Part shown: positions 4,491 through 57,423 of the stretch, one piece after another | Position numbering within the stretch: position 1 is the stretch's first letter | Layout of the letters: each line of letters starts with the position of its first letter | Assembly: GCA_964016885.1 (NCBI GenBank) | Contig: OZ024745.1 | Location: forward strand, 74,834,001-74,898,000 | Origin: Eledone cirrhosa | Lineage: Eukaryota | Reading direction: 5' to 3' | Length of the DNA stretch: 64,000 nt | Program-made: the position numbers and the translations under genes | Notes under the pieces: model-generated | Told to the model about the DNA's origin: nothing | Seen by the model: only the letters and a program-made list of their open reading frames with translations | The model's database searches: none

Positions 4491-4865
4491 TCAAGAATTT
4501 TGTAGGATTTTGTAAATATTACCAACCTTTTCACTACTAAGTTGATGTTTTGAACATATCTTAACAAAGCTTCTTACATGCAGAAAAATTGTGTATCACC
4601 ATGTAGGCATCTTCTCCAAATTTAATCATTTTCATATACAAAGTCCTACCAAAAAATAGATATTGCAGAAGCTGGTCTTTTTGCATAAAACATTAAACAG
4701 CCAGCTTTCATTCTCTTAGTTGTCTCAACAGCACACAATGGTTAAGTAAGATAACTACTTTCTTTGGCCTCCACAGCTAGAGAGACAGAACATCAACCAA
4801 CCTCTCTAATTCTTTGCTTATATCTTTAACCTATTTCTTTTTCTTTCACTCTATCTCTATGTATA

Positions 4866-5715
4866 CGAGGTGTGTCAGAAAAGTTCCAGGACTGATGTCA
4901 CAAAAGATTTATTTCAAACCCAAACTTCACACTGAGAGTTTTCTCCTTCAAAGTAATCCCCCTGGAGTATGTAACTGTAATCTTAGCTCTCTGCAGTCAT
5001 CAAACTTTTTTCTTCATAATTTTTTATACATGTCCTCTGTTTCAGGTCGTCAAGCAATGAACACAGAGCAACGAACAAACTTGAAAACTCTGTCAGAAGC
5101 ACTGGGATTGCTGCAGCAAGTGTATGGAGATGAGACGATGTCATGCTCACGTGTTTTTGAGTGGTGCAAGAGGTTTAAAGAAGGATGCGAGGATGTAGAA
5201 GATGACCCCAGGAGCGGAAGGCCCTCAAGAACTAGGACTGAGGTCAACGTTGAGCGTGTCAGGAAGATGGTGCATAGCGATCATCGGCTGACTGTTTGAC
5301 TGATGGCAAATGAGCTGGGCATGAATCAGGACAGCGTCTGGAAGATTCTCACTGAAGATTTGGACATGCAGAAAGTCTGCGCGAAGATGGTGCCAAAACT
5401 GCTGAATGATGACCAGAAGGGTTGACGCATGCAAGTTTGCCAGGACATCCTCGAGTGTCTTAAAACCGAACCAGACTTACTAGGGACAGTCATCACCAGT
5501 GATGAGTCATGGATCTTCGAGTACGACATCAAAAAAGCCGTGACGACGGAACTGCGGAGGATCCCAGAAGAATCCTTCCAGGAGTGCATGTAAGCGTGGC
5601 AGAAAAGGATGGAAAAGTGCATTAGACTCCAGGGGGATTACTTTGAAGGAGAAAACTCTTTGTGTGAAGTTTGGGTTTGAAATAAATCTTTTGTGACATC
5701 AGTCCTGGAACTTTT
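4866..5715 (+). mobile_element. internally deleted mariner (Tc1/mariner) transposon with transposase pseudogene
   Basis: TA then CGAGGTGTGTCAGAAAAGTTCC. ~90-bp inverted repeats at 4879-4968 and 5626-5715. HTH region VFEWCKRFKEG..DDPRSGRP, KVCAKMVPKLL, TSDESWIFEYD and C-terminal GDYFEG. In-frame stops; most of the catalytic domain is deleted. Confidence 0.92.
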
Positions 5716-9582: not shown

Positions 9583-12500
9583 GTGCCCCCCCCAAAAAAA
9601 AGAACTTTCATTGGTTGATTATCTAATGATGCAAGTAGGTCTAAGCGAAGGCATCTCACCAAAGATGTAAATGCGACTGCGATCAGGCTATCATAGAATG
9701 CTGTGCAGACAGCAGTTGCAAGAGCGGAGGAGGATGACAGTCGGGGTGAACTTCGACGGAACAAAGATGCTGCCGTGACTGCTGCTGCTCGCACTCGAGA
9801 GGATGAAGGACGACGCGCCGTTCGACGAAGCAGGGACGCCGCTGCCACCAACATGTAATGAGATTGCTGCATTTATTTGTGGGGAACAGTACAACAAGAG
9901 AGATATCATTCTAAAGCACCGAGACAGCGTATCAATGAGACACACAGGTCCTACGATGCACTCCAGTATCCATTGCTATTTGTCAACGGCGAGGATGGAT
10001 ACCATTTTGGCATTCCTCAACATTCAGCAGGCAATGGTGAGGCACATCTTAGCAAAACTGTCACCTGCATGGATTTCTACGCTTTCCGATTTATGGTAAG
10101 GGACAATTCCTTCAACCATCTACACCGTTCTCGGGACCTTTTCCAACAAATTGCTGTTGATATGGCCGTTAAAATGGAATCCGAGAGATTATGGTTCATT
10201 AAATTAAATCAAAAGAAACTTCGATTTGAATGCAACATTCATCTACGCGATGGAATTCACAACGACATATCCCCAGACAATTTAGGGCAAGTGTGTATTT
10301 TGCCTTCAATGTTGACAGGGGCACCCTGATACATGCACGAGAGGACTCAGGACGCCATGACTTATGTACGACATTATGAGCGACCTTTTCATAACGTTTA
10401 CATGCAATCCCAAGTGGAAGGAGATTACAAAAGAACTATTCCACGGTCAAGCACCAAGACACAGGCATGATCTCATAGCAAGAGTGTTTCGCCTGAAATT
10501 ATCCAAATTAATGGATTTATTAAAGAAAGGACAGGTTTTTGGGCCTGCCAGGTGTGACATGTACACGGTTGAATGGCAGAAACAAGGGCTTGATTTGGTT
10601 GGTTACAAAAATCAGTTCAAACTACATCGACAAATTCATTTCTGCCAAACTACCTGATCCATCGATTGACAAGGACCTCTTCTCTATAGTCACATGAAAC
10701 ATGGTCCATGGTCCTTGCGGACATGGACTCAATATGAAGTCCCCGTGTATACACGACAGAAAGTGTACAAAACGATATCCCAGGCCGTTTTTACAGGAAA
10801 CACAGACTGGCGGTGATGGATATCCGTTGTATAGGCACAGGAGACCTGAAGACGGTGGGTTCACAGCAAAAGTTGGTGAACGCGAAATCGACAACAGCGG
10901 GATAGTCCCATATTGCTCCCTCCTCTTGACAGCGTTCAACGCCCATATAAACATCGAATTTTGCAACTCAGTAAAATCAATTAAATACGTTTGTAAGTAT
11001 GTAAACAAGGGATCGGATGCTGCCGTTTTTGGTCTTCATCATGAAAACAGAAGAGATGAGGTATCTGACTACGAAGCAGGCTGATACATTAGTAGCAATG
11101 AAGCCTTTTGGTGCATTTTGGCTTCCCACTGCACCAACGACACCCCGTCATTAAACAACTTGCCATTCACCTTGAAAACAGTCAACAGATGTATTTCAAC
11201 AGAGTGGCTTCAATGGGCGGAGATGTCTTGGAGAAATATGGGCTTCCACAAACACTTCGAGATGCACCATCTGACATTCCCAACGACATTACACGTGAAA
11301 CGTCATATGATGTCGAGGAACTCAAAAGGAATATTGTAGAAAATGAACCAAAACTTCTAATGGATCAAAAGCAAGCCTACAATATTGTCGTTGATTCCAT
11401 CCGTAATCAGGAAGGGGGTATATTCTTCCTGGACGCACGGGCAGAACATTTGTAATCAAACTTTTACTCGCTGCAGTGAGGCAACATGGAAACATTGCAT
11501 TGGCCGTGGCTTCTTCCGGCATTGCAGCAACTTTGCTGCCTGGTGGAAGGACGGCCTATTCTGCCTTCAGTTTTCCTCTCAACGTGGCATCATCTGAGAT
11601 ACCCATGTGCAACATCAGCAAGTCTTCCGGAAAAGCACTGGTGTTAAAGCGCTGCCTATTAATTGTTTGGAACGAATGCACAATGGCCAACAAGGCGGCT
11701 TTCGAGGCATTAGACCAATCACTCACAGACATCAGGGACTGTCAAGAACCAATGGGAGGTGTCACTTTCCTGTTATCTGGGGACTTCCGACAGACTCTGC
11801 CTGTAATCCCAAAAGGTATGTGGGCTGATGAGGTTGGTACATGCCTTAAGGCTTCCCCACTTTGGCGTTATGTAAGAAAGCTGACGCTTACAACAAATAT
11901 GAGAGCACAACTGCAAGGTGATGAGACATCAGCGGGTTTTGCTGCTGCCATTTTGTCGTTGGGAGATGGTAAAGTCCCACTCAATGGAGATGGTGCAGCG
12001 GACCTCACAGGGATTTTGCAGATGCGTTAAGTTACAGACGTCTGTTTTTCCTAATCTTGAGGAGAACTACATAAATCAAGAGTGGTTGTGTGAATGCGCA
12101 ATATTGGCTTCGAAAAACCACATAGTTGGAAACATTATGTTGTGCTTGCCTGACAACCTGCACGTTTACAAGTCCCTTGATTCTATGGCTGATCCAGACA
12201 AAGTTGTTAATTACCCCACAGAATTTCTTAACTCCCTAGACCCTCCCGGATTGCCATCACACTTACTGCGACTTAAGAAAGGTGCCCCTGTCATGCTCCT
12301 CAGGAATTTGGAACCCCGAAGGCTTTCCAACGGCACGCGTCTGGTCGTCCAAAAGGCGATGCCTCATGTTATTGAGGCAACAATACTTACAGGATGGAGT
12401 AAGGTGGACACTGTCTTCATACCAAGGATACCTCTCATTCCATCCGGGAAAGACATGCAGAAGGCTTGCACATTCAGAAGGCTGCAATTCCCTCTCCGGC

Positions 12501-12689
12501 TCAGTTTCGCCATGTCGATTAACAAATCACAGGGTCAGACGCTGACAGTCGTAGGGCTTAATTTAGAAGAACCGTGCTTCTCCCATAATCAACTATATGT
12601 TGGCTGCTCTCGAGTGGGGAGCCGACATAACCTATTTGCTTTTGTAACTCGCTAGAAAACCCAAAATATAGTCTAAAGGAAGTTTTGTA
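9583..12689 (+). pseudogene. Helitron RepHel (HUH Rep + PIF1 helicase) pseudogene
   Basis: Fragments across frames: SYDALQYPLLF, DLFITFTCNPKW, YTVEWQKQGL, MVHGPCG, KYVCKYVNKG, VASSGIAATLLPGGRTA, SGDFRQTLPV, QFPLRLSFAMSINKSQGQT, QLYVGCSRV. Many stops, frameshifts and deletions, including loss of HUH and Walker A residues. Confidence 0.93.
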
Positions 12690-15199: not shown

Positions 15200-15437
15200 A
15201 TGAATGTTAAAATGTCTATTAGAAGTTTGTTGTTATTTAAGAGATCATTCCGAGCTGGTCACCTCTGTATAACACCGTGTTGCCAGAATAGAACACAGCT
15301 GTCTACCAAGACGCAGAATACGCTTGATTTACGGGGTATATTCCCTCCTATAACGACACCTTTCAATGCCGACGAGACCATAGCTTTCGACAAACTTGAG
15401 AAGAATTTATCATTATGGAAGGACATACCATTCAAAG
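15200..15437 (+). CDS. HOGA1: 4-hydroxy-2-oxoglutarate aldolase, mitochondrial, exon 1
   Basis: Basic transit-peptide-like N-terminus then LDLRGIFPPITTPF (DHDPS/HOGA motif); donor G|gttcgc. Start could also be the ATG at 15212. Confidence 0.9.
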
Positions 15438-17858: not shown

Positions 17859-18432
17859 ATTTCAGAGTATAGGGTTCGCTTCCACTTTGTCAATATTATC
17901 CTCATCATCATCATTTAGCATCCAGTTTTCTATGTAGGCATGGGTTGGACGGGTCGTCATGACCAAGTGACTATTTAATCGAAGTTTCTGTCCTCCCAGG
18001 CAGATTGGGGGCACGTTTCGCCGACACATGTTCCGATTTCTACAACTAAATGCCCTTTCTATCACCAACCACTTTACCGATGGTATTGGGTGCATTTTAT
18101 CTTTGCACCAGCACCAGGGAGGTTGTCATGTCCTTGAATGCACAACCTCAAGTTGACCCAAGTTTTGTGAGTATAATTGAGCAGACGGAAACTATATGGT
18201 AACTAATAAAATGCATACATGAAATTCGAAGGTGTAGCCTACATTATGGCTAGACGTGTTTCGATAATACTCAATCACTTTGAATACTAATTCAAATTGT
18301 CTTTTAAGTAGTGACCCTGTCACAGCTACATCAGGATAAGGATGGTTGACGCATTATTTCATTTTTGTTACACTTCGTCTCCACTCAAGCCCAGATGTGG
18401 TATGGAAGACTTATAGATTTGGTAAACAGAAC

Positions 18433-18564
18433 TGTAGTGACCTACATTCCGCGGGCTCACATACATTCTCTGTGCGTGATTTGGCTCAGCTCAGCCAATC
18501 AGCGCCAGTAGAAGAGGATGTATCCCTACGCGTCCTGAGGGAGAAATTACCCGCGAAGATTTGA
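18433..18564 (+). repeat. truncated 5' LTR (132 bp)
   Basis: Starts TGTAGTG, contains a CCAAT box, and is identical to 19871-20002. Confidence 0.85.
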
Positions 18565-18572
18565 TCTTAAAG

Positions 18573-19786
18573 TCAGGAATTCCTCATGAGTTCCAGCAGT
18601 CCTGGGTACGCCTCTGTTCGCTGGGCTTCTGATATAGCCTCGTTGAAGGCTTGGCCTAGGGTTCCCGATCTAACCTTGGTCAACTGATTCTTTCTGAATG
18701 TCGATATGAAGCTGGACGGATTTGGGTACTGATCCAAAAGCTGGATCATCAGTCCAGCTATCATGTATCCTGCATGTTTAGTATCTGCCACAGCCGCCTC
18801 TTCTGCCAATGCTTCATCTGGAACAAAGTGGTGCTTGTATGATTTGGACTGGAAGGCGACTCTGAAAGCAAGTGCATCCATGAGTGCACCTTCCACATGT
18901 CCCGGCTCTATGTTCTTAGAATAAATAAACCGTTTGTCTTTGTCTAAACATCCTATCATACCGAAAAAAGTGTGCAAGTACGGGTTCGATCCTGCAGAAA
19001 ATACACATTTGTTGATTAGTCCCAGGGACTTTTGGTAAGGGAAAATCCCTGTATCTGATGCTCCCGCACTTAAGGATTTTAGCACTCTCATGGTCTCATT
19101 AACTCCTGCGTCATTGACCACCAAACAAACCAGATCTGTTATGGTTAGGTTGAGTGTTTCTCTGAAGTGATCAAGGACCTCTATGATATGCATCCCTTCA
19201 TATCTCGCCAATATGGTCCCCCTTCTCAGCAGCGACAGATCATGTATGTTATAACTGTAAAGGAAATAATCTATCGCTGCCATTACTTGAAATATCTGAT
19301 CGTTCCTGACTATATGGCTCAGGGCACCGTTGAGGAGCATGTCCTGGTCGTATCTGTATGGGTGCGTCATGCGATGATTATTGAAGGCCTTGATTATGTT
19401 TTGCTTATAATCCCCCACCTCCAGAACGGTGCCCGCATTCTCCACCTTGTAAAGGGTGACTATATACAGCATTAGCCCGTGGAGGTTGTTGCGGTTGGTG
19501 TGGGGAAGCTGGCATCTTCGGTGATGTTGAAGAAGTCAGCAGGGGTAACTGACTCTTTCTGTCTGATAAAGTCATAGTTTTGGAGATCAGTATTTATATC
19601 AAATTTGAGGTAGGACTGGCAGTATTTGATCATAAAATAGAGTATATGTTTCGGGAGGATCTCTTGTGTGTTGGCTTTTGTCAGAATGAAATCATGTGCT
19701 GCCTTGACATCCCCTCCAGAGAAAATGATTATCTGTTGGGGCTGGAACACCTCATTTTTTTTTCTTGCATGCATCCTTCTGCTCAA
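18573..19786 (-). pseudogene. endogenous viral element: rhabdovirus-like nucleoprotein (N), frameshifted at ~19472
   Basis: Intronless ORFs of 104 aa and 299 aa, colinear with vesiculovirus N motifs: LYIVTLYKV~LYLLGLYRV; MAAIDYFL..HDLSLLRRGTILARYEG~VAAVDMFF..HECASFRYGTIVSRFKD; FPYQKSLGLINKCVFSAGSNPYLH~MPYLIDFGLSSKSPYSSVKNPAFH; RSGTLGQ~REKTIGK. Confidence 0.88.
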
Positions 19787-19858
19787 TTATTTTTTAAACT
19801 GATGTGCTCTTTCAGCATTTTTTCTTGCTGATTCAATAATCTATATCGACTACCATCT

Positions 19859-19867
19859 AGGAGGGGG
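19859..19867 (+). promoter_or_regulatory. polypurine tract (plus-strand primer site)
   Basis: AGGAGGGGG ends 3 nt before the TG of the right LTR. Confidence 0.75.
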
Positions 19868-19870
19868 TAT

Positions 19871-20235
19871 TGTAGTGACCTACATTCCGCGGGCTCACAT
19901 ACATTCTCTGTGCGTGATTTGGCTCAGCTCAGCCAATCAGCGCCAGTAGAAGAGGATGTATCCCTACGCGTCCTGAGGGAGAAATTACCCGCGAAGATTT
20001 GAAGAATCTCTCTCTCGAACCAGCAACACGTACAACATATGAAGTGAGATTTTGCACCTTAGCCTGCCGGCTTTCCGGCGCAATGGCACATTCCCTTTTG
20101 TAACCTCATTTTTATGTGTAACTTCAACCATACAAGTTAACCAACATTATTTGTGCTACAACAAAAATAAACATACATTTCATCTCTAATTTCTGCTGTT
20201 GACATCATTATTATGTTACTCGTGTCTCAATAACA
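19871..20235 (+). repeat. full-length 3' LTR (~365 bp)
   Basis: TGTAGTGA...TCAATAACA imperfect inverted termini, CCAAT box, AATAAA at 20166-20171, preceded by a PPT. Confidence 0.75.
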
Positions 20236-21268
20236 TTTATAAACTATGCTGCCAAAGAACGTTATTGGTAAAGGCGTTTATCCCGATGTTAAGGTAACTG
20301 AAATAATCATAGCTTAAAATGCTCATAACGTGACTAAATGTATAAACATATGGTATACATAATACCAAATACATAAACATGGTATTATTCTGAATCACGT
20401 TGCCTTAGTGATTATTATTTCAGATACATTTCAAAAAGAACTATGGAAAATGGAGACAATAAGAAATAAAATACCATAGATAAGGTCAGCATCTGGGTAT
20501 TTAGTGCCCTAGGCTAGCTAGCCCTTCAATGTGCACTCTTTTCTCCTAAATAAAATTTCAACTTAAAATTTGCCAAGGCAAGAAACATAGCTCTTAACAC
20601 TGCTTGCTCTGATCACACTAAGAAAATTACCAAGCCTGCATTTTGCACTACAGAGTCTAAACTCACATATGCCAGATCATGTGATGGGTCATAATACAAT
20701 ATGACTCTCTCCATGACTCTTTTGCTATGCAGCAAAAATGTTTAGTGATTTATTTATTGATTGTAGAAAATTATTTTTTATTAAAGTTAATTTGGTGGGA
20801 AGTGAACAGACCTACCTTGCGTCTCCACTTGAACCCAGACTGAATGTCCCTACACCAACATCCACGTGACTTACATCCAGCCAAGAATTACAATCATAAC
20901 TCATCCTCATCAGGCTACGATCTGACAAAAAAGAGACAGTGACAGGCACCCAAACCCTGATGTGACCTCACTGGTCCCTCGCTTCCAACAAGACCTCCCC
21001 CACTCCTTTTCGACAGCCCCACAGTTAATTATACAAATTTGTTTAAAACTGTGAGCCTTTTAAGATTCAATAATGCACTCTATGCAACTTCTTAGCCTTA
21101 ATTGTAGCACTAGACCTGACCACAGAACTAACCAACTATTAACAATAGCCACTTAGTTCATCTTTTTCTGAATCACAATGACATACATGATCTGGTGCTT
21201 ATCTACACCTTTCATAGTATTAAGCAGATGAGAGAGAAATGTTCTCCTATGAAAGATTATATATATAT

Positions 21269-22145: not shown

Positions 22146-22202
22146 ATACAAACATACAAACACACAAACACACATTAAGATTTTTTATTTTTTTCTCAAC
22201 AG

Positions 22203-22334
22203 GTTACACTCTGATGGGCTCAAATGGAGAATATGTCCTTCTAAGTCTAGAAGAACGATTGGATATTGTACAGAAAGTGATCAGTTTTACAAAAGATGAC
22301 AACAAAATCATAATGGTTGGCACTGGTTGTGAAT
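22203..22334 (+). CDS. HOGA1: HOGA1 exon 2
   Basis: AG/GT boundaries in phase. Encodes GYTLMGSNGEYVLLSLEERLDIV...IMVGTGCE. Confidence 0.95.
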
Positions 22335-26164: not shown

Positions 26165-26299
26165 GTTGCTGATCACAGTTTAATTCCAATTCTTCTCTAC
26201 AGTGTTCCTTCCAACACAAATATTGATTTAGCTGCAAATGTGATAATAGAGTTGGCTGATCATCCAAATATCATTGGTCTTAAAGATAGTGGAGGAAAT
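26165..26299 (+). CDS. HOGA1: HOGA1 exon 4
   Basis: VADHSLIPILLYSVPSNT...HPNIIGLKDSGGN, containing the catalytic Tyr and Schiff-base Lys. Confidence 0.96.
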
Positions 26300-30615: not shown

Positions 30616-30768
30616 GTTACAGCCAAATATGGTATAGCTGGACTAAAAGCTGCTATGGATTGGTTTGGTTTCTATGGTGGCCAGCCTCGATCACCTCTGC
30701 AACCTCTCACAAAAGAGCAAGCACTGAAAATGAAGGAAGATTTTTTCTCAAGGGGTTTTATACAATAA
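30616..30768 (+). CDS. HOGA1: HOGA1 exon 7 (last coding exon)
   Basis: VTAKYGIAGLKAAMDWFGFYGGQPRSPLQPL...FIQ*. Confidence 0.96.
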   Translation, partial: VTAKYGIAGLKAAMDWFGFYGGQPRSPLQPLTKEQALKMKEDFFSRGFIQ

Positions 30769-42253: not shown

Positions 42254-44820
42254 TCATCATCATCATCATCATCACCGTTTTACGTCCGTTCTTCCACGCT
42301 AGCATGGGTTAGACGGGTTGTCCTGTTGTGGGCAGTGTCTGGTCGGCTGACCATGCCTTGCTCATACAGGAACTGATCTGGCTTGATTTCTACAGCTGGA
42401 TGCCCTTCCTAACACCAACCTCATTTACAGTGAGTGCTGGGTGCTTTTTCGTGGCGCCTACACGTCCACTTTACAGTGTGGGCTGGGTGCTTTTTTGCCG
42501 TGGCACCTCCACGACCACCTTGCGGTGGGGGGGGGGGGGCATATTGTTTATATGCTTCAGCATGTACCCATGGGAGGTCGGGTACCCTGTATTACTGCGT
42601 GACGCCAGAAGTCACGGTCGTGTGTCATTGACTTTGAGAGGTGTAGTTGGGTAAGGTCGGCTTTTATCACCTCATCCCAAGTCATCTTGGGTCTCCCCAC
42701 TCCGCGGTTTCCATCAACTTCTAGTGCTCTGCACCTTTTTATGCAGCTGTCATCCTTCATACGCATCACATGTCCATACCAGCGTAACCGCCTCTCCTGC
42801 ACGCAGCATTTGATTCCTCTTATGCTCAGTCTCTCTCTCAATTCATTTATGCTTTGTCGTTCACGTATATTACTGTTACACATCCATCGGAGCATGCAGG
42901 CTTCGTTTCTCTCTAATCTACGTAAGTCTTCCACCTTCAGCGCCCAGGTCTCACTACCATGCAACATCGCTGTTCGGATACACACATCATACAGTCTGCC
43001 TTTCATTCTGAGGGAGAAGCCTTTTGCAGCTAGCAGTGGTAGTAGTTCCCTAAACTTCTTCCATCCCGTTCTTACCCTAGTTATTGTACTTTCTGAGCAC
43101 CCACCTCCGTTGCTAATTCGGTCACCTAGGTAGCAGAAGCTGTCTACTGTTTCTACAGGGCCCTCCCAGAGATTGGTGGTACTTGTTTCCTGTGGCTGTT
43201 TGCTTGCTGTTTCAGCACAGCTGCTGCATGTGAATCCTACATTCTTAATTAAGCTTCCTGAGATCCCGCTACATTTGGGGCAAAGAATGGAGTTCCTACC
43301 TACACCTTTCCTACATACTGAGCAAGGCCATTTCCCTGAGGGGATCTGGGTTCTGTTTTCTCGTCTACTTATAAGGACCTTAGTCTTTGTCATGTTGACT
43401 TTGAGGCCCTTTCTCTCTAGTCCCTGCTTCCAGGTTTGGAATTTATTCTCTAGTTCTACCATAGATTCAGCTATGAGTGCGAGGTCATCAGCATACAGGA
43501 GTTCCCATGGGCATCCGGTCTTAAACTCCTCCGTTATTGCCTGCAGGACTATGATGAACAGGAGAGGGCTAAGAACAGAGCCCTGGTGGACCCCAACCTG
43601 TACGCTAAATTCCTCGCTATACTCATTGCCAATCCTAACTTTGCTGACTGCTCCCCTATACATGGCTTGTACCGCTTTCACAAGCCATTCATCTACTCCT
43701 AGTTTTCTAAGAGCCCACCAGATTACTGCACGTGGAACTCTGTCAAAGGCTTTCTCAAGGTCGACAAATGCCAAGTAGAGTGGCTTACTTTTAGCTAGGT
43801 ACTTTTCCTGTAATTGCCTCACAAGGAAGAGCGCATCAGTGGTGCCTTTCCCTGGAACAAACCCAAATTGCATCTCGTCTATATTCACCCGGTCCCTAAT
43901 CAGCTGTGCTATAACTCTTTCTGTTACTTTCATGACCTGGTCCATCAACTTTATACCTCTATAGTTTCCTCTATCTAGTGCATCGCCTTTACCTTTGTAG
44001 CAGTTGACAATGATGCTACTGCACCAATCTTTTGGTATGGCCCCCTCTAGTATTACCTATCTTCATATCTCTGATTGCCTTACTTACTACGCTGCCGCTG
44101 ACTTGTACTGCTGGTCCCTCTATAGGGTCTACGTGGGGTAGGGTCTCTTCTTCCCATGCATTCTCCTCATTTAGTAATCTATCATAATGACTCTTCCATG
44201 CATCTTTCTTCTCAGCACTTGTGAGGGCAAGCTCACCTTTATCATTCCGGATACACTTCTCTCCAATGACATCACAACTATCTCTGACACACTGCCTCGC
44301 AATCTTGAATACCTCCTGTTTCTGGTCCTCACGTTGTAAAACATGCTTGAATTTTCTATCCTCTGCTTCCCTCCTAGCTAAGTATACTTGTCGCCTAGCT
44401 TCCCTCTTGGTCTCTATGTAATGTACCCTGCTCCCCCCGTTCTTCCATTCTTTCCATGCCTGTCTCTTGGCCTTGACTGCTTCATCTACCTTATTGTTCC
44501 ACCACCAAGTCACTCTCCTCCTGCTTGAGGTCTTACTCCAGCCACAAACCTCATCCGTCGCCTCTAGTAAGTTATTTTTTAGGAACTCCCAGTTCTCTTC
44601 TACGTTAAATGTCTCTATCTGTTCTTCTTTACTGTCGTAGGCGTTGAGTAAAATATCTTTAAATCTGTTACTGGTTGAGGGGACTTTCAGCTTCCAGATC
44701 TTTCTTCTCCAGGTTGGCCTCTGTTTCAGGGCTCGTCTAGTTCTGACCGTGAGGTCGCTGACAACTAAGCTATGTTGGGATGTACATTCCTCACTAGGGA
44801 AGGCTTTTGTGTTTACGACC
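42254..44820 (-). mobile_element. 5'-truncated RTE-clade LINE
   Basis: RT ORF 42557-43948 (QFGFVPG, AFVDLEKAFDRVP, QGSVLSPLLF, YADD, RLRWYGHVMR, GRPKMTW), upstream piece 44016-44513 separated by a deletion/frameshift, and a (GAT)n tail. Confidence 0.93.
42557..43948 (-). pseudogene. RTE reverse transcriptase ORF (truncated)
   Basis: 463-aa open frame with RT motifs and a Cys-rich insertion; the endonuclease domain is mostly missing. Confidence 0.9.
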
Positions 44821-46051: not shown

Positions 46052-48442
46052 CTGAAACAAAGAAATTTGATGTTCAATAAACAAACATTTACTACATCAA
46101 CTGATTGATCAATAATCTTATATGAACGATAATAGGAAATTGCATTGATTTACACCTTTTGATACCAACATACCCCTAACTGCCTGTGGTTTTCTGACAT
46201 AAATTTTTAAAACACTCATATCTAAATGAAAATTGTCCAACATAATATTTTATGTAAAAACCAATGTAATGTTCCAAACACCAGCTTAATAATGAAAAGG
46301 TTAAGTTATGTTATACAAGCTGGAGCTAGCCCTGAGGGTTTATACTTTACTATGTACCAGCATATGTTGAGATTGAGGTTTTGTAGGTTGAGTAAATAGG
46401 TCGCAAGCTGGTTTTCCACTTTGTATTTTTGTCGAAAAAGGTGTGTGAACAGCATTTACATTTGTAAACATCACTGTAAGGCCCAGATAATTTTCAATTA
46501 GATATTTATTTTAATTTAGAAAAAATATTAGTCCAACTAAACATATGGTCACCTTTTTTTTTGTATGGTTTGAAATCCCTGAGCTCAGTATATTCATGGC
46601 AAAAAACAGTAACATTCTAAACTAAATGATGATGATGATGATGATGATGATAGACATTCATTTATTCAATTAACTCAGCATCCAACTCGTGAATTAACAC
46701 GTGAGTGGTTGAGTATTCCACAGACATATGTACCCTTAACATAATTCCCAAGCCAAATCAGCATGACACAATATTCTCGGGTACCAGATAATAGAAGGAG
46801 GTGGAATATGCGAAGTAGTTGAAATAAATGGGGGTTTGGAAAATCAGTAACTTTTCTAGGTTGTCGCCGTTGATTTTTTTAAAACCTAGAATTAATCGTC
46901 TAGTTTACCCCAACCCACCCTATTTATTTGATAACGTTTGCTTGTAATATTCTTTTTTTGCCGTGTATAATGTTTTTTACATTCTGAGATCTCAGAATTG
47001 TGCAGTGGACTTCTTGCATTCACTAAACTAAATATAATTTTATATAGCTAGCTCCCATCTTAACAGACACAAGCTGACCCAACATTTTAAGACAGACTAT
47101 TCATTTGTAACACTCAGAAGGCCACAGGTTCTATATAAGGGGGTATAGGTACAGTTGTTTAGACTTTGGAGGTATAAAAGTAAAATCAACTACAATAGAA
47201 TTTCTCACTATCATCATCGTTTAACGTCCATGTTTGCATGGGTTAGACAGGTTGTCACGTTATGAAACATGTCCGGTTAGGTGACCAACGTCTTGATCAT
47301 ACGGATCTGTATTTTGGCTTGGCTTCTATCGTTGAATTGGTAGAATGGTGGAGTGGTGGTATTTAGTTTTGTATCATTATGTTTTGATTTCATGTGGTTA
47401 CCACATTAGTGTCGACTGGGTGCTTTTTCGTCGTGTCATCAGCACGAGCACCTTACAGAGCAGGCTGGGTGCTTGTTGTCATGTCACCAGCATGACCACT
47501 TTACAGAGTGGACTGGGTGTTAGTTGTCATGTCATCAACACGACCACTTTAGAGTGGACTGGGTGCTTTGTTTTTCTGGTTTCACCAGCACAACCACTTT
47601 ACAGGGTGGACCATGTCACTATGAAATCAAAACTAAATACCACCACTCCACCAATTCTATTAGCTCACACCAAAATATAAAACAAAAATTCAATTTGGAG
47701 ATTAATCAAATAAAAAAAAAAAACCTATATAATTTTACCCTCCTCCCCATAAGTCAGTGAATTGGTAAAGTCGTTCAAACATAGGACAAAGTACCTTGCA
47801 GTATTTGTTCCAAACTAGTCAAGATTAACTTTGCCATTTATTTTTTCAGGGTTGATAAAAAAAAAGTACCTGTCCAGGGCAGTGGATTAATGGAACTGAT
47901 AGAGTGTCAGACGATATGACTTGTAGTATTTGTTTCAAGCTTTGGCATTCTGAGTTCAAATCCTGTTGTGGCTTATTTGGATTGTAGACTTAATTTGTCA
48001 CCCAGCTTAACACCACCATCTGACTTTTGGCTATCTCTAACAGAGTTCATTCTTTTGCAAACATTTGGCTCATGTCTCCAGTTTGAGGATACTTCCCTCT
48101 CTCTCCCATCAGTCGCAGAAGCCCTGAAAGGAAAACAATTATAGGCACCGTCTGTTTTCCCTTCCCTCACTAAACTGTACAAGAACAAATATTCTAAGGC
48201 CATTTTCCTTGCTGATATAAGAATGATTCTTGCAGGACTCATCATGGACTCTTTATATTCATAATGGGGTCCTTTTTGAGGTAATGTTTTACAGGCAAAT
48301 GCTGTTCCTGGTGCTAACACTTTTAGTCACCTTTTACAACATGGTGTACTTATTCTAAACTGAATACACACATTATCTCTGACTAATTAAAAAAAAAAAA
48401 ATGAAAACAATTTAATAAGACAGAAAAAATAAAATAACTTAC

Positions 48443-49429
48443 TTGATCAGTAATTTTGGGAGTGGGTACATTTTCAACCAATCTTTTATTTACATTTTTG
48501 GTTTTGGAGAGTTTATCTTCAGAAGTAGTTTTCTGTTCAACACATACTTTGTTAGGTTGATCTTTATTGGACCGATGTTGTTCTGTAAGTAGTCCTGCTG
48601 CTGAGCACAGAGAAGACGATGGTGACAAAGAGGAATTAGGGGGCAACACTGCTGTTGGTAACTGGCTGTTACTATTGTGAACTTTCAATGTCGACGTCTT
48701 GCTTACAGTGCCAGCATGAGATGAAGCTTGAGATGGTTTACTCTGACTATTATTACCACTACTACTACTACTTACTGCTGGCTTCTCAACACTCTTTCGG
48801 CTTTTTTTATTACCACAGTCTGAAACTGGTTTCACATTAAGCACTTCTTGGGTCACACTGTTGTTCGGTGAAACCATTTTACAATTTGGTTTCTCTGAAT
48901 TGGAATTGGAATTATTACTTAATGTGTGTGTTGGAATAACAGGAGGACAGCTGGTGTCTTCTTGAGGGCAGGATTTAGAGCCAGTCTTAGAAGTAGGGTT
49001 GATTTTCCCAGAAATTTTACCTTTCTTAGGTAGACACTTATTTGGTACCAAATTGACATCAGCAGATAATTTTGGATCTTCTTTGGGTTGTAATATAGAT
49101 TGTTGTTGTTGCTGCTGCTGCTGTTGGTGATGATGATGATGTTGTTGGTGGTGCTGCTCTTGGTGGTGGTGGTGGTGGTGGTGGTGTTGCTGCTGCTGCT
49201 GATGTTGTTGTTGTAACTGCTGCTGCTGTTGTTGTTGTTGTTGCTTGGCCAGCTGTTTTTGGTGGTTTTCAGAAATGTTCTTTTTTAGCAGGCAATTTTC
49301 AGTTTTTAATTTGCTTGATGATTCATTAGCTTGACATTTCCCATTTATACATGATCTTTTCTCTTCCAGCTTCACATTATGTTCCTCTTCTGCTTCATCT
49401 ACATGTCCATTTTGTAACTCTACTTCTTC

Positions 49430-49492
<63 letters not shown>

Positions 49493-49687
49493 GTCATCGT
49501 CATCGTCATCATCAGAAGACTCTCCTTGCAAATATAAAACTTTGTGTTTAACACGCTTCTTTTTTAATTTCACTAACAAGTTAGAGTTGTTACACAACTG
49601 TGCAATCTGACACTGCCCATTTGGATAATCATTCATTAGGTACGTTTTATCACATTGCTGCACTTCTAGCTTGGCTCTTTCTTTTGC
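48443..49687 (-). CDS. FAM193A: FAM193-family protein, large low-complexity exon
   Basis: 1245-bp open exon with gtag acceptor and gtaagt donor; AKERAKLEVQQC..., poly-D and poly-Q/H tracts. Confidence 0.88.
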
Positions 49688-49901
49688 CTACAAATAAAAA
49701 GAAAAACATCAATCTTAATAATCATCATAACCATTTTACCACTGATTCTAGTGTCACTTCCATCATGCTCTCATCTCTCCTCCCACTCCCATCACTGAGA
49801 TATCAGTAATTCATCCGTTTACCTTCATAATCATTCTCAGCCATCTGCGATATATTTTTTCTTTCACAATGATTGTTATTGAGTAAAAAATCTAATACAG
49901 A

Positions 49902-50174
49902 TTAACCCTTTTGATACCAAGCTGCTTGAAACTGCTACTAGTTCAACAATACAAGACTGGTTGTTTTAAAGTGTTTACATTTATCTGAAAACTTTCTGAC
50001 ATAATTCTATGTAACTTAAAGTTATGTTCGAAATTCTAGATTAATGTTCCAAACACTAGGTTAATAATGAAAAAGTTATATCACTAAATCTCTTCAAATT
50101 CTTGTTTATTTTCAAAATGATTTGAAAATTATAGGCAGTGTCTTTCATTTGAAATATAGTATTAACAGGGTTAA
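49902..50174. mobile_element. TTAA-flanked MITE (piggyBac-like)
   Basis: TTAA|CCCTTTTGATACC...AACAGGG|TTAA. Related copies at ~23533-23791, ~52133-52372, ~52547-52782 and ~61196-62312. Confidence 0.7.
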
Positions 50175-50347
50175 GTAAATCTGGAAAAGCTTAAAATATA
50201 TACGTTTAAATTTGGTTGTTCATCACTGGTAGGATTGGTCATTCTGCAATGTTAATCATGACGTAATATGAGAAAAGCACTTAACATTATGCAACTCATC
50301 CATCTTTGATGTTGAATCATGCTGATGGTGGCGGGAACGGAGTTAAA

Positions 50348-50567
50348 TATATTATAAAGTAAAATGACAGGAGGCCGGACAGGTATATAAATATTTATTT
50401 CTGCAAACACTATTCACATTTCAGTGGCCAGGCTGTGTAAGAACCGGGTGTAAACTGCATAATAGTTGTATACCAAAGGAATGGTGGTAAACACATTCCA
50501 AGAGGCTTTAAGAAAAAAAAGCAATAATTAAGGGAATTCAACCTGTCCGGCCTCCTGTCATTTTACT

Positions 50568-50577
<10 letters not shown>
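50348..50577. mobile_element. small TIR element (~37-bp inverted repeats) beside (TA)n
   Basis: TATATTATAAAGTAAAATGACAGGAGGCCGGACAGGT ... ACCTGTCCGGCCTCCTGTCATTTTACTTTATAATATA. Confidence 0.75.
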
Positions 50578-50622
<45 letters not shown>

Positions 50623-50772
50623 GTGGTTGGTGTTAGGAAGGGCATCCAGCTGTAGAAAACCCGCCAGACAGTCCTATGCGAGCAAGACAATCACTCTTGC
50701 CTCAAGTGGGAAAACCCCCGTCCAAACCCATGCAAGCGTGGAACACGGACGTTAAACGATGATGATGATGAT

Positions 50773-50813
<41 letters not shown>

Positions 50814-51182
50814 TCAAAACAGCACAGTTCCCATGACTTTCGGAAACATTTTTTCACGCTCAGAGTTGCTGAAGCATGGAACAAACTACCTGCATCAGTT
50901 GTTAGCTGTCGAGACACTGCATCCTTTAAGGCCTCCATGCTTCCCGAGATCCGCCAACACTACACCTAACACATACAAACATGTACTTCCCTGGCATTTG
51001 TGTATTATTCTATGTACTATATTGACGAGTTGTAGTGCACCTGAGCACTTTACACAATAATTTCATTATTATTATTATTATTATATATATCAAAGGTATA
51101 TATTGAGTTAGAAACTCAAAATAGATATATACAAAATATATATATATATATACACACACACAAAAAGGAATAAAATCCTTAC

Positions 51183-51371
51183 CTTTCGTTGCTTCTGTTT
51201 CTTTCGCTTAGCTGCTTTTGTGGTTGAAGATTTCTCTGTGTTTGATGCTGACTTAGCCCAGTTTGAGTCATCATAACCATTAATGTAACGTACTAAATCA
51301 TCTAAACCTCTATGATCAAGGAGATAAGGAACCTGATCATCATCAGACTTTTTCTGTACTTTAGCTTCTTT
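51183..51371 (-). CDS. FAM193A: FAM193-family protein exon
   Basis: LDHRGLDDLVRYING...KAAKRKKQKQRK matches FAM193 DHRRVEDLLQFIN...AAKRARHKQRK. Confidence 0.92.
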
Positions 51372-51954
51372 CTAAATATGAAAATAAATTGAAACAATTC
51401 AACATTTTGGATTTAACCCAGCACTGGTTCTATGAAACAAAACTAGCCATTTTAAACCATACACTTTCCATCTACCAAATTTTACTCACAGAGACCAATC
51501 CTGAAACCAAGTGGTTGTGAAGTGAACTCCTTAACCACACAGCCATGACTGCATGAGGACACAACTAACGTTAGTGCCAAAATAAAATGCACTCGGCCCA
51601 AATTGTAAAGTGGTAGTACTGGTGCCATACAAAAATGTCTCCAGTCTACTCAGCATGTGGTGATACTGGTGCCATGATAAAATGCACCCAGTCCATATTG
51701 TAAAGTGGTAGTACTGGTGCCATGATAAAATGCATACAGTACACACTGTAAACTGGTTGACATTACAAAAGGCATCCAGCCATAGAAACCATGCCAAAAT
51801 GGAATCTAATGGAACAAGAGATGGTCTCCGACATGTCTAATCATGTGACAATCCATCCAACACGTCAGCATGGAAAACAGACATAAAATGGTGATGATGA
51901 TACACACACACATGCACACACAAGATATTGTTAAAAAGTTCTTTGAGTTCTTAC

Positions 51955-52026
51955 CCGTCGTCTGAGTTTCAACTGTAGTTTTTCTCGCATTTCATAGAAT
52001 TTATGACTAGTAGGTGCTTTAGGTGG
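51955..52026 (-). CDS. FAM193A: FAM193-family protein exon
   Basis: PPKAPTSHKFYEMREKLQLKLRRR matches FAM193 PPAAPTSRNYAEMREKLRLRL. Confidence 0.93.
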
Positions 52027-53344
52027 CTGTAAATAGAATAGATTGATAAAGGTTCAGTTTTAACAAAGTCAATTATTGGAAGATAGAGATTAAGATAAAC
52101 TAAAAAAATATTATATGTAATTAAAAATGAACCTAACCCTTTAATGACTGCATTTCTAATAAAATACACTCATTTTAATTAATTAATGGAGAATTTCAAG
52201 GGATTTACTGAAATTATTAATTATTTGATTACAAAGATAGTAACTTAATGTAAGGTTCTTATATAAAATTATGTTTGAAGATTTTAATTTAAATTGGAAA
52301 CCTTTAAAATGGGTGGTTTTATTTCATAAAACCAGAGCCAATTTTGGCTGGATTGGTAACTAAAGGGTTAAAATGTGTTTGTGTAACTGTGACTTTCAAT
52401 TTCAATTACTGTATTATTAACTGTAAGGTTAATAGATCAAATCCTGTAACAGCTACTGTTATGTGTATTTGAAGAAGGAACATTACTCTGTTTGCCTCAA
52501 TATTTCTTATGTTAATGTTTCTTCATTAACTATTATAATTTCTTTTTTAACCATTTCATTACCATATCTCTAATGAAAGACATTGCCTATAACTTTCAAA
52601 TCATTTTGGAAATAATCAGGAATTTCAGTAATATAACTTTTTCAACATAAAGCTGATGTTTGGAACATAACACAACAAAGGTTCTCATATAAAATTATGA
52701 TGGAAAGATTTTAGATAAATATAAACACATAAAACAGTTTTATATCATAAAACCAGTGAGAGTTAGCTATAAAAAGAGTTAAATCTCTTTCTTGGCAGGG
52801 ATTACCTGCACTTATACTTGCCAAAAATGTCCTACAGAAGGGTGTACTTTCTAATTCATTCAATTGTAAAACAGCAGAAGTAGTAGTTAAGCAGTATAAC
52901 ATGTCTTGCTTAAGGACTTCATGCAATGCCTGTGGTGATGTTTGAAACCATGTAACAGAAGTTGTTAGTTAAACTCCTTAATGAACCAGTCACAAAATAA
53001 TATCTCTAAGCCATTATCTTCATTGACATTGTATCTGTACTAATATGCTGGTGTGGGATGACTCAGTCTGTAACTCAGAAGGACTCCATGTATCAATATT
53101 CCATATATCTTCTATAAGATTTAATGTTTTAATCTCTCTAAACAAGTGTTTTAAGATAATTTTCCTTGAGGGCCTCATGATAAGCTTTACGATAAAATCA
53201 TCATGGGGTCGTTTGCAAAGCAATGAATTATGGCCAGGTGTAATTTCTGGCACCAACACTTTTAGTTGTCTCTTACAACACACAGGGTTGTGGTGTACCT
53301 ATTCTAAATTGGATACACAGTGGTATATTCAAACAACTGTTTCT

Positions 53345-54097
53345 TAATATATATCTACATAACACCTAATATATATCTACTACATCATACCTAATATATA
53401 TCTATATCATACCTAATATTTATCTACTATATCATACCTAATATATATCTACATCACACCTAATATTCATCTACATCACACCTAATATTCATCTACATCA
53501 TACCTTATATCTACTACATCATACCTAATATATATCTACTACATCATACCTAATATATATTTACATCAAACCTAATATATATCTATTACATCAAACCTAA
53601 TATATATTTACATCATACCTAATATATATCTACATCATACCTAATATATATCTACATCATACCTAATATATATTTACTACATCATACCTAATATATATCT
53701 ACATCATACCTAATATATATTTACTACATCATACCTAATATATATCTACATCATACCTAATATATATCTACTACATCATACCTAATATATATCTACATCA
53801 TACCTCGTATATATCTACATCATACTTAATATATATCTACATCATACCTAATATATATCTACATCATACCTAATATGTATCTATTACACCATACCTAATA
53901 TATATCTACTACATCATACTTAATATATATCTACTACATCATACTTAATATATATCTACATCATACTTAATATATATCTACATCATATCTAATATATATC
54001 TACATCATACCTAATATATATCTACATCATACCTAATATATATCTACATCATACCTAATATATATTTACTACATCATACCTAATATATATCTACATC
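53345..54097. repeat. 22/25-bp minisatellite
   Basis: Unit CATCATACCTAATATATATCTA(CTA). Confidence 0.95.
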
Positions 54098-54371
54098 AGC
54101 AGTAATATCTACAATGTGTACCATGGCTGTGTAGTTAAGGAGTTTGCTTCACAACCACATGATTCTGGGTTCTGTCCTATGGCACAGTACTTTGGGCTTC
54201 TACCATAGTCTCAGGTTAACCAATGTCTTGCGAGTCAAATTTGGTAGACAGAAATTGCAGATACCCACTCGCTCTGCGCGTGTGCGTCTGTCTGTCCATC
54301 CGTCCTGTAAACTAGCAGTTCAACAAAAGAGATATCAATAAAATATGTACAGGGGTTGATATGATCGACTA

Positions 54372-54893
<522 letters not shown>

Positions 54894-55104
54894 TTAGAAA
54901 CTAAAACTCAATCAGGGAAAAAAAAATCAAATAAACATGAGGTCCTTTTTGAAGCAATGTTTTACAGATGTCCCTAATAGCACCAACTATTCTAGTCACC
55001 ACTTGTAACACATAAGGATACAGTGTACCTATTTTAAACCAGACAGTATTAGTACATGAATGATTAAAATGTAGTATTACAGTATTGAAATGTAATATTT
55101 TTAA

Positions 55105-55740
55105 TATAAATATATTCTATCTGGCTGTGAAACCTGGACTCTATATCATTGCGATATCCAAAAATTTGAACACTTTCACCAGCAAAAGCTTCATTCAATC
55201 TTTAACATCAAATGGGAACACTATGTGACCAACAACAAAATCTTTGAGAGATCCATCAGTCAAAGACTGAATTGCTGATCATGAAACACTGTCCTCGGGT
55301 GTCAGGATATGTAGCAAAAATGGAAGAGTCAAGGTTTCCACATCAAGTCTTATTCAGTGAGCTAACTTCAGGGAAAAGACCAGAGGGTTGCCCTCTTTGA
55401 AGATATAGGGACCAACTTAAAGCAACACTGAAAGCCACTAGACTTGACCTAAATCATTTGAAACATAAGCCTGAGACTGTACCAATTGGTGGTATTCCAT
55501 CACAATCAGAACCAAAAACTTCAAAGCCACCAGAAGAGAAAAGGAAGAAATCAAACAACGAGAAAGGATATACAAGATCAACCTCATCCTCCATCAACTT
55601 TACCATGCAGTCAATACCATCGACTCTTCCATGCAAGAATTGGTCTACTTAGTCATCAATGTCATCCCCATAAAGGAAACAATCAGCAAAGAAGAAATTC
55701 TTGGATACGAAATAAAGCCAATGATGATTCTTATGATGTT
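55105..55740 (+). mobile_element. old degenerate RTE-type LINE 3' fragment
   Basis: GCETWTLY.., MEESRFPHQVLFSELTSGKRPEGCPL remnants with stops. Confidence 0.6.
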
Positions 55741-56424
55741 ATATTATTTGTATTTACTCAAATCCCGCCGAGGTTAACTTTACCTTTCATCCTTATGGGG
55801 TCGATAAAATAAAGTACCAGTAATGCACTGGGTAATTGCTGGCCTTGTGCCAAAAGTAGAAACAATTATTTGTATTTACTCAACAGATCATTATCTATAA
55901 CAATTAAGGAAGGAATGGAACAGACTGGATACACTCTTAGTCTCGCATAAACGTCCACCCCACCCCCACTCCAAACCACTTATTAAATTTTGTTAATCTA
56001 TCCCCTGTAAAACTTTATTTTAAGTGGTAGCATTCCTTCAACAATTAATTTTCTTTAGACATTAAAAAACATTATAAATGACAAAAAAAGAACATTTCAA
56101 AAAATTCCATGTAGGATGGGTTGGGGTAAACTAAACAATTGTTTTTTTTTAAATCAAGGGAGACAACCTAGAAAAATTATCGACCCCCTCCCCCATTATT
56201 TGGGACCCGAGATTAATTAGTTTTGACAATGAGTGTTCTAGTTGTTCAATCACAATGCTTGGGACGACCTGAGTTTGTGGTAAATGACACCTATCCAAGA
56301 TACCATACAGTGGAATCAAACCCATGAACTTATGGTTGCCTAGTGAACTTCTTAACTATTTGGCCATGCTACAAATACTAACACTAAATACATTATAACA
56401 AAATTAAAAATAACTATAACTTAC

Positions 56425-57423
56425 CTCAGCACCAGCTGTGTTAGCCCCATACTTCTTGCAGTGTTGGTTATGAACCTTTTCATTATGGGATGAACTGTTT
56501 CCACCGAGGGTAGCTGGACGATTACAAGAATGGCTTTTAATAGGACCATTCTGATTGTTACACTTGTGTACCTTGCTACAGACTAACGTAGTCGCAGAAG
56601 GAGACGTAGATGAAGGAGTAGCAGTAGTGAAGGGGAGGGATGGTTGCTGTGAGGATTCTTGTGGTTGCAGTAGCTCAGTTTGCTGCACCGTCACTTGCAC
56701 TTCAATTGAAGATGATTCAAGGCTAGATGAGAGATGATTAGATGGCAACGTTTCGATCACAGCTCCTTGGGAAGGCAATCCTGAGTCTGATGACGATGAT
56801 GACGGTGACGATGATGATGAACTCCTGACAAGTGACGACGTACATGGCAGTAACTCACCATTTATGCTCTCATCATATTTATGAGTATCAAGTAATAACC
56901 TAGGGTACAGTTGGGTGTTCTCCCAGTCTCCTTGGTAAGTATGTTCATGATCGGTTAATGCAGTAGCATTAGAACGCACCAACTGTACTGGTAACTTAGA
57001 CTGAGGTGAGAGAATAAATTTAGGCTGCTGTCGAAGTTGTACAACTTCGACATCCCACTGAGGTTGCAATATAGCTCGGGCGTGAGACGACGGTCCTCCA
57101 TTAACAATGCTTGCATTACTATTTGTATTATTATTAGTATTATTATTAATATTGCTATTGTTAGTGTTATTGTTACTGCTGCTGCTGCTGCTGCTACTGC
57201 AACCAGTGCTGCCAGCACCATTCACAGCAGCAGCGGCGGCAGCAGCAGCAGCAGCACTTCCATGAAGGCCATGCAAGCCAGAAGGTCCATGAATATGCGG
57301 ATAAAGATGGAGATGTGCTGGTCTGGGAAGAATAGGAACATGCTGAGGTAGTGAAGTTGAAACAGTGTTCCCGCGTTGCCGTAAACAAAAGTGACACTGA
57401 CACTGGTTATCATCAGATTTCAT
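56425..57423 (-). CDS. FAM193A: FAM193-family protein exon
   Basis: 999-bp exon with CQCHFC and HLHLYPHIHG motifs, poly-A/S/N tracts and canonical splice sites. Confidence 0.92.

Follow-up and report, generated by a model that had tools for sequence, protein, structure and literature searches.

An LTR-retrotransposon/rhabdovirus chimera with integrase-type ends in the genome of the octopod Eledone cirrhosa

Structure of the chimeric element

The window analysed here is a 64 000 nt stretch of the Eledone cirrhosa genome, located on a chromosome-scale contig (C5, 134.7 Mb) of the 3.0 Gb assembly that was searched in this study. At positions 18433–20256, the window contains an element made up of a truncated LTR, a rhabdovirus-type nucleoprotein (N) gene in antisense orientation, a retroelement 3′ UTR, a polypurine tract (PPT) and a complete LTR. 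The four bases that precede the element (GAAC, 18429–18432) are repeated directly after the LTR end (20257–20260), forming a TSD. The truncated 5′ LTR, or stub (18433–18564, plus strand), corresponds to bases 1–132 of the LTR of a Gypsy family, here called family A, as judged from family copies genome-wide, and presumably represents U3 only. It is followed by the N sequence at 18565–19749 (1185 bp, minus strand), by a 109 bp 3′ UTR of the non-autonomous family-A type at 19750–19858, recognized from genomic matches and a 20-segment alignment, and by the PPT at 19859–19867, assigned from its sequence and from the equivalent position in family 3′ LTRs. The ends of the complete 3′ LTR (19871–20256, 386 bp, TG...AAA) were set against 19 family copies. 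The LTRs, like the 3′ UTR and the PPT, are on the plus strand, where a motif scan located CCAAT at 18495 and 19933, and AATAAA at 20166.

A previous sequence-only reading of this region had described a 132 bp direct repeat, a purine tract before the 3′ LTR, CCAAT and AATAAA motifs within that LTR, and the lack of gag/pol and a PBS. Our analysis agrees on each of these points: the stub is 100% identical to 19871–20002, the tract and both motifs (19933, 20166) are present, and PBS, gag and pol are absent from the window copy. Among the 19 family-A copies, two are also 100% identical over the same 132 bp and 16 more are 97.7–99.2% identical, and the identity of the repeat by itself says little about the age of the element. 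The right end required correction. The LTR had been taken to end with a CA at 20235, but it reaches 20256 and ends in AAA, as in its family. CACTACA at 20646–20652 was considered as the right end of the element and rejected, as it has no TSD and family alignments stop at 20256. The integrase-type ends that had been proposed are borne out by the 4 bp TSD, which the earlier reading had overlooked. With a 5′ LTR of 132 of 386 bp and no PBS, the window copy lies outside the structure of a conventional LTR element or retrocopy, and the family-length 4 bp TSD around both termini is that of an integrase insertion.

Both switch points could be placed. The left one falls at 18558–18564, where alignment with the LTR of a non-autonomous family-A element (L032) and with the longer viral 3′ UTR of another locus (L034) showed at least 6 nt common to the LTR and the viral 3′ UTR; the chance of at least six shared nucleotides at a random crossing is 0.0017. 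The right one lies at 19749/19750, with a 5 nt overlap that was deduced from the conserved viral reading frame and is not directly seen. Of 40 scored genome matches, 33 were restricted to 19750–19858, and this piece aligns to L032. The element was thought to have returned at the PPT itself; the return point is in fact about 110 nt upstream of the PPT, inside the 3′ UTR.

The element is situated in an intron of a host gene of the DHDPS family. Four collinear plus-strand exons were recognized, at 15323–15436 (Pfam DHDPS positions 2–28, weak, E=0.14), 22202–22333 (positions 41–79, E=5e-4), near 26165–26284 (positions 123–161, E=1.6e-6) and near 30619–30762 (positions 247–284, E=0.07), two of which scored weakly; our guess is that the gene may be HOGA1. 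The insertion follows the first of these exons with its LTRs in gene sense. Because the element sits in an intron of a plus-strand gene, the host pre-mRNA would contain antisense N. Any function of the insertion, such as a source of antisense RNA or piRNA, is conjectural.

Identity of the viral gene

The minus-strand frame at 18576–19472 matched the Pfam Rhabdo_ncap family (PF00945) with E=3.5e-17 and 62.9 bits, against a cut-off of 26. Its translation also matched solved nucleoprotein structures in the PDB (E about 1e-7), in which the GTIL.R..G and FPYQ.SLGL..K..FS motifs of the window N could be aligned, and a full HMMER protein search returned 135 matches. Homology to rhabdovirus N, as expected of a rhabdovirus-derived EVE, is therefore seen by Pfam, PDB and HMMER, and the assignment is also consistent with the translations and with the other genomic loci. 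Read on the minus strand, the viral part comprises 8 nt of 3′ UTR, a stop codon at 18573–18575 and an open stretch at 18573–19472, beyond which the frame is broken by a frameshift near 19478; the 5′ end of the gene is absent. The sequence-only reading was right about an antisense viral N and its rhabdovirus-type identity, but gave its length as ~1.3 kb, and 1185 bp are present. Similarly, its view that the gene had been copied holds for most of N, but not for about 36 N-terminal codons, which are present at locus L035 and missing from the window, nor for an intact frame.

The nearest named proteins are an Octopus bimaculoides N-like protein (52% identity) and two from Argonauta hians (60 and 48%), and most other N matches were about 21–34% identical. 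In a tree of 28 rows, with one segment per locus and 19 of the 135 matches used, the window N grouped in a separate clade (support 100/99) with eight other genome loci, the O. bimaculoides and Argonauta sequences and one unnamed protein, on a stem of 1.53 in a tree with long branches. Because the window N clades with Octopus and Argonauta sequences on this long stem, the N loci appear from their sequences to derive from a divergent octopod rhabdovirus lineage.

The parent Gypsy family

A genome search with the family-A LTR gave 2362 first-look candidates, 40 of which were scored and were 92–100% identical; the window LTR belongs to a high-copy Gypsy family. The sequence-only reading would have been contradicted by a repeat that is not the terminus of any LTR family, and a real family was found. 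Family A includes a decayed 5.47 kb element with a PBS (L031), in which RVT_1, RT_RNaseH and Integrase_H2C2 domains lie in Gypsy order, DUF7041 lies upstream and the reading frames are interrupted; its protease and integrase core gave no Pfam match. L032, a 2.34 kb non-autonomous form, matches 19750–19870 with its 3′ end. Family-A elements carry the motif TGGTGACC as PBS after their 5′ LTRs and a purine tract before their 3′ LTRs. ARAGORN found no tRNA genes in the window.

The right ends of these LTRs are unusual. Family A ends in GCYAAA in 19 copies (GCAAAA in one), and a second family, B, ends in CCTTTA, rather than the TG...CA form that a third family, C, displays. Elements of families A and B (L002–L020, L034, L035) have these non-canonical AAA and TTA ends, yet are flanked by clean 4 bp TSDs. 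In a survey of TSDs, at least four bases matched in 5/6 solo LTRs and 8/9 two-ended elements, the misses being L010 and L044.

Read support

Reads of four of the seven sequencing runs were compared with the window; one of the four, X1, possibly represents the assembled sample. In X1, one contig covers the left flank and stub, including 25 LTR bases, which is below the 31-base bar of the tool, and another, with 43 LTR bases, runs across the LTR end into the right flank. X1 also has separate contigs at 18893–19041 for the window-type N and for the N of a second copy on contig C4 (described below), and the C4-type contig extends 30 bases into the 3′ UTR. In two RAD runs from a second study (X5 and X6, two animals), 8 and 10 molecules, respectively, start at 19771 and run into N, and carry 22 bases on the retroelement side of the right junction; the start position fits an SphI site at 19767, the enzyme having been deduced. 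At eight diagnostic sites (19634–19667), all 14–20 reads had window-type bases, in a comparison in which C4-type reads would fall below the 95% cut-off. Site 19728 is polymorphic, with 9/9 and 5/12 reads differing. The chromosome-scale contig, together with window-type N/UTR reads in the two second-study samples, polymorphic at 19728, places the viral sequence in the germ line.

Run X4 gave repeat-derived pieces only. The stub/N junction was covered by no read or contig of the runs compared, and none spanned the whole element. The empty-site joint (18432 to 20257) was absent among the four joints listed, which is uninformative, as contigs drop variants. The unread stub/N junction and the possible origin of X1 from the assembled sample are the points that would allow an assembly chimera, but we regard such an artefact as extremely improbable: the TSD is intact, both junctions recur on another chromosome with different flanks, an X1 contig joins the LTR to the right flank, and the X5 and X6 molecules read from 19771 into N. 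The core interpretation, an LTR-retrotransposon/rhabdovirus chimera with integrase-type ends, is supported.

A series of captured N and L genes

The sequence-only reading had proposed that other LTR–N copies be counted. A protein search of the genome gave 16 N matches that collapse to nine loci, eight of which adjoin LTR-element sequence of three families, with N antisense in six and sense in two. L039, on contig C4, has both window junctions between unrelated flanks, with a TSD in a TA repeat, its own SINE-like insert and deletions. L034 begins with a 181 bp stub of the second LTR family, whose T-run is joined to the A-run of the N gene end; antisense N, a 490 bp 3′ UTR, a PPT and an LTR follow, and the TSD is CGCT. 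An array on contig C28 contains five antisense N units with a 1796 bp period, four of which start from a very short stub after a PPT. L037 and L038 carry antisense N and part of the next gene, and share a return junction followed by 3′ UTR, purine tract and a third LTR. The sense loci are built differently: in L035, a full LTR and PBS lead into a gag-protease region, after which N begins at the putative gene start and is followed by 3′ UTR, PPT and LTR (TSD AGGC); in L036, a PBS and internal sequence precede an N that extends from gene start to the gene-end A-run.

Across this series, N is antisense at all four loci with an LTR stub (the window, L039, L034 and the C28 array), and both sense N sequences lie downstream of a PBS, as does the antisense N in the first unit of the C28 array. 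The viral ends fall at putative gene-start or gene-end signals in L034, L035, L036, L037 and L038; these signals were identified from shared motifs and, in part, from what we take to be the usual rhabdovirus layout.

The C28 array has a family-C LTR end and PBS at its start (L062:5340–5421) and a family-A LTR at its end, and a family-B-type LTR accompanied by a gag-pol element (L061:5426–6010) interrupts it; the array consists of inter-family recombinants. The ninth locus, L063, showed no match to these LTR families. Its N fragment lies within 172 bp direct repeats (L063:3194–5734) near what we take to be Helitron-like coding sequence and possibly a GIY-YIG remnant, and was perhaps captured by another element class.

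The viral L gene was also searched for, in a first look that was stricter than the N search, giving seven matches at about four loci. On contig C3 (130.16–130.17 Mb; L071:7100–10000 and L072:1–9712), a multi-kb stretch of Mononegavirales L (PF00946, best E=5e-146), which contains stops as well as internal repeats, lies in antisense directly against a Gypsy gag-pol element, at the 3′ UTR of the latter. Smaller and more decayed L fragments are present at L066, L068, L069 and L070 (C23, C3 and C27), with a family-A-like element within 10 kb at the C3 fragment only.

Probable origin of the chimera by template switching

We consider it highly probable that the element was produced by template switching of a Gypsy reverse transcriptase followed by integrase insertion, when both possible strand models are taken together. 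The sequence-only reading had inferred a plus-strand switch onto N mRNA at a junction 8 nt beyond the stop codon. The position is confirmed, and the plus-strand mRNA switch is the likeliest of the models, with minus-strand copying of genome RNA a close rival. We hypothesize that the chimeric cDNA was made in a Gypsy particle, in a germ-line cell infected by the octopod rhabdovirus. Plus-strand synthesis would have been primed at the PPT and would have copied 132 nt of the LTR before jumping, via the 6–7 nt microhomology, onto the 3′ UTR of a co-packaged N mRNA, of which 1185 nt would have been copied as antisense DNA. The growing strand would then have jumped back to single-stranded minus DNA, at a point some 110 nt upstream of the PPT, and continued through the PPT and LTR. 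Because both ends are authentic LTR ends, the element's own integrase could have inserted the product with a 4 bp TSD.

A plus-strand switch predicts exactly the combination of stub, antisense N and return upstream of the PPT. On this route the template, mRNA, is naked and abundant, and the return target is single-stranded DNA of the same molecule. Since the viral ends fall on putative gene-start and gene-end signals, mRNA appears to enter Gypsy particles, and the sense N sequences downstream of a PBS (L035, L036) fit ordinary minus-strand capture of mRNA. However, the stub architecture is equally predicted by minus-strand copying of genome-sense RNA, an origin that we regard as possible but less probable. 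In that case, the LTR, PPT and 109 nt of 3′ UTR would have been copied before a switch to negative-sense genome RNA and the copying of N, and the molecule would have been finished when synthesis jumped aberrantly a second time, to base 132 of the LTR in plus-strand strong-stop DNA. A single RNA-to-RNA rule, in which sense inserts come from mRNA and antisense inserts from the genome, also covers the series. The captures at L037 and L038, which run from N across the gene boundary into the following gene, and the multi-kb L stretch antisense to a gag-pol element are simpler with a genome template, and Poirier et al., in the accessible text, read opposite-orientation circular chimeras in Drosophila as products of minus-sense templates (PMC5857290). 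The T-runs at gene-end junctions (7–13) are not longer than those of the elements themselves, which does not favour the mRNA route, nor does the antisense N that follows a PBS in the first unit of the C28 array; with two sense loci only, the link between stub and polarity is low in power. Against a genome template, the sense loci show that mRNA was available, and the N loci (nine) outnumber the L loci (about four), although the first look for L was stricter and the comparison is between these two genes. The minus-strand route also requires the nascent 3′ end to invade base-paired strong-stop DNA through 6–7 homologous nt, and the genome RNA of rhabdoviruses is encapsidated.

A third possibility operates at the DNA level, with viral cDNA replacing the interior of an integrated family-A element by microhomology-mediated repair, so that the TSD would be older than the virus, and with ectopic gene conversion among family members giving rise to the second copy. 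These copies often show short deletions bounded by short repeats, and the 3′ LTRs of the window and L039 are not mutual best matches, as conversion into another resident would give. Nevertheless, this explanation is improbable: it does not account for stubs that start at LTR base 1 and rejoin less than 1 kb from the PPT in two families, for the T-run/gene-end junctions or for the synonymous excess described below, and in the window the stub and 3′ LTR are identical.

Copies that share junctions differ like virus strains

Each window junction occurs exactly twice genome-wide, in the window and in L039. Both copies have a rare 3′ UTR variant found in 2/20 segments, but, as noted above, their 3′ LTRs are not mutual best matches (among about 45 matches) and are closer to other family members. 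Segmental duplication was rejected, as the flanks share dispersed repeats only. Two independent captures at both junctions are distinctly unlikely, because antisense N offers alternative microhomologies at 93 LTR positions (6-mers) and 1046 internal positions (5-mers). The standard replication cycle is closed to a chimera that lacks a PBS and has a truncated 5′ LTR. We envisage, tentatively, that the chimera arose once and reached its second site later, by helper-driven retrotransposition or by conversion of another family copy, and that part of the viral interior was probably copied anew from another virus genotype at that step.

The N sequences of the window and L039 differ at 31 positions, of which 17 are synonymous (8.3 expected, P=0.0006), with the expectation conditioned on base pair or base change and on CpG context. 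Eight changes cluster within 34 nt (P=0.0004); without this dense patch, 12/23 differences are synonymous (6.3 expected). Two other pairs of sequences share junctions. Units 1 and 2 of the C28 array have 17 coding differences, 10 of them synonymous, and L037 and L038 have 15, six of them synonymous, which is no significant excess alone (P=0.24). Pooled over the three pairs, 33/63 differences are synonymous (17.8 expected, P=4.5e-5). Five control frames gave no pooled excess, with one frame nominally significant in one pair (9/17, P=0.04). Mutation bias was rejected as the cause, as the excess persists under base-pair and CpG conditioning.

The synonymous excess and the improbability of independent capture therefore leave re-copying from virus or selection on a protein. 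We lean towards the first, in which homology would have allowed a different virus genotype to serve as template for a new copy of the viral interior, in a mixed infection or in later infections. Two observations temper this view: N as a whole (31 differences in about 1130 positions) has not diverged more than the LTR and UTR (16 in about 626), and one of the three pairs is not significant alone. Purifying selection on the copies as a host-expressed N protein, before they were broken, would explain the synonymous excess only, and we consider it unlikely. The selected protein would be an opposite-strand product, for example a putative dominant-negative restriction factor. Several loci keep open stretches of 250–400 codons, two differing units of the C28 array have in-frame indels only, and the retroelement UTR supplies an in-frame ATG at 19774. 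However, most of the excess is on the side of the window (11/18 of the changes unique to it are synonymous), which is the frameshifted copy, and eight changes in 34 nt fit a template swap better than slow selection. The remainder of the probability falls to hotspot capture or an unrecognised bias.

Comparison with known systems

LTR-mediated retroposition of cellular mRNA has been described by Tan et al. (2016, PMC5131818). In the accessible text of that study, the microsimilarity at switch points has a median of 6 bp, a single switch underlies some chimeras found at several sites, and one Gypsy family has a recurrent switch-back site. The chimeras described here likewise have foreign RNA in place of the element interior, with an apparent microsimilarity of 5–7 at the switch points, and L035 corresponds to the conventional form. 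Unlike the cases set out there, the window element carries a viral cargo in antisense, retains only a stub of its 5′ LTR and has lost the PBS, and same-junction copies differ like virus strains, with derived changes that are not shared.

In Aedes and Drosophila, according to the text available for two studies, vDNA forms when RNA-virus sequence is joined to Ty3, Ty1 or BEL elements by copy choice; junctions are often in LTRs, opposite orientation is seen, and a flavivirus EVE with LTR and gag sequence on its flanks is reported (PMC6797480, PMC5857290). Tassetto et al. (2019, PMC6797480) called the recombination sequence-independent. The insect vDNA in these accounts consists mostly of episomal cell reads, whereas the E. 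cirrhosa chimeras are complete germ-line insertions in which the switch points and the TSD are preserved; the host is a mollusc and the virus a negative-strand one. In the mouse LCMV–IAP event, as summarised in PMC3205384 and PMC4038843, an LTR retrotransposon also reverse-transcribes and integrates a non-retroviral RNA, but that event was somatic, and the review text states that no endogenous LCMV element is known. Like EBLN, a LINE-type EVE described in PMC3205384 as having a poly(A) tail and an L1-type TSD, the window element is a mononegavirus N gene fixed in an animal genome; in contrast to EBLN as portrayed there, it has LTR ends, a PPT and no tail. The C28 array resembles Pxyfem of Plutella, in which, according to the accessible text, an antisense copy of an mRNA is joined to fragments of an LTR element, in multiple and tandem copies that are a source of small RNA (PMC9674220), although the cargo of Pxyfem is a host gene with a shown function and C28 is known from its sequence.

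Within the literature that was accessible to us, we found no description of an octopod rhabdovirus EVE, of a viral chimera with an LTR stub or of re-templating. The general kind of event is known from LTR-mediated retroposition and insect vDNA chimeras; the stub architecture, the octopod host and the apparent re-templating seem undescribed. The germ-line entry of RNA viruses, and their frequent antisense-to-LTR fossils, have so far been inferred mostly from fragments and cell-culture reads. The E. cirrhosa genome keeps complete products, with switch points, LTR ends, TSDs, both polarities and three LTR families, and with such a series it becomes possible to test which strand and which template were used in capture. 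The same-junction copies that differ like virus strains hint at re-copying from live virus, which, if true, would affect the dating of EVEs and the idea of EVEs as immune memory. It is conceivable, although we think it doubtful, that the chimeras act as mobile, self-refreshing infection records, in which old junctions are kept and the viral sequence is updated from the current strain. A cassette transcript would be repackaged by a helper Gypsy element, and RT would swap by homology to the RNA of the infecting strain. If this were so, octopods would possess a heritable, updatable antiviral memory, loosely like spacer acquisition.

Other features of the LTR elements and the window

Five loci have an insert at the same spot of a family-A LTR, 5′ or 3′ (about base 290–300; L039:5893–6462, L040, L042:6184–6491, L061:5533–5715 and L076:3933–4119), which suggests site-specific insertion; at L039 and L061 the insert is a SINE-like repeat of roughly 190 bp. 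Near-perfect long inverted repeats lie in or between LTR elements at L036:5898–7567 (767 bp, 98%) and L040:1980–5044 (1342 bp, 95%).

Elsewhere in the window, a decayed Helitron-like element with a Pif1 2B domain (E=2e-17) lies at 10622–12655, a LINE-type RT frame of 462 aa (RVT_1, E=5e-29) at 42557–43945 and a mariner-type HTH fragment at 4859–5299. On the minus strand, 48383–57423 contains large low-complexity exons with a cysteine-rich motif and no clear Pfam match, which we presume to be FAM193A-like. Finally, the small insertions flanking the chimeric element look polymorphic, because run X1 holds forms without 183 bp (17923–18107) and without 89 bp (20514–20604).
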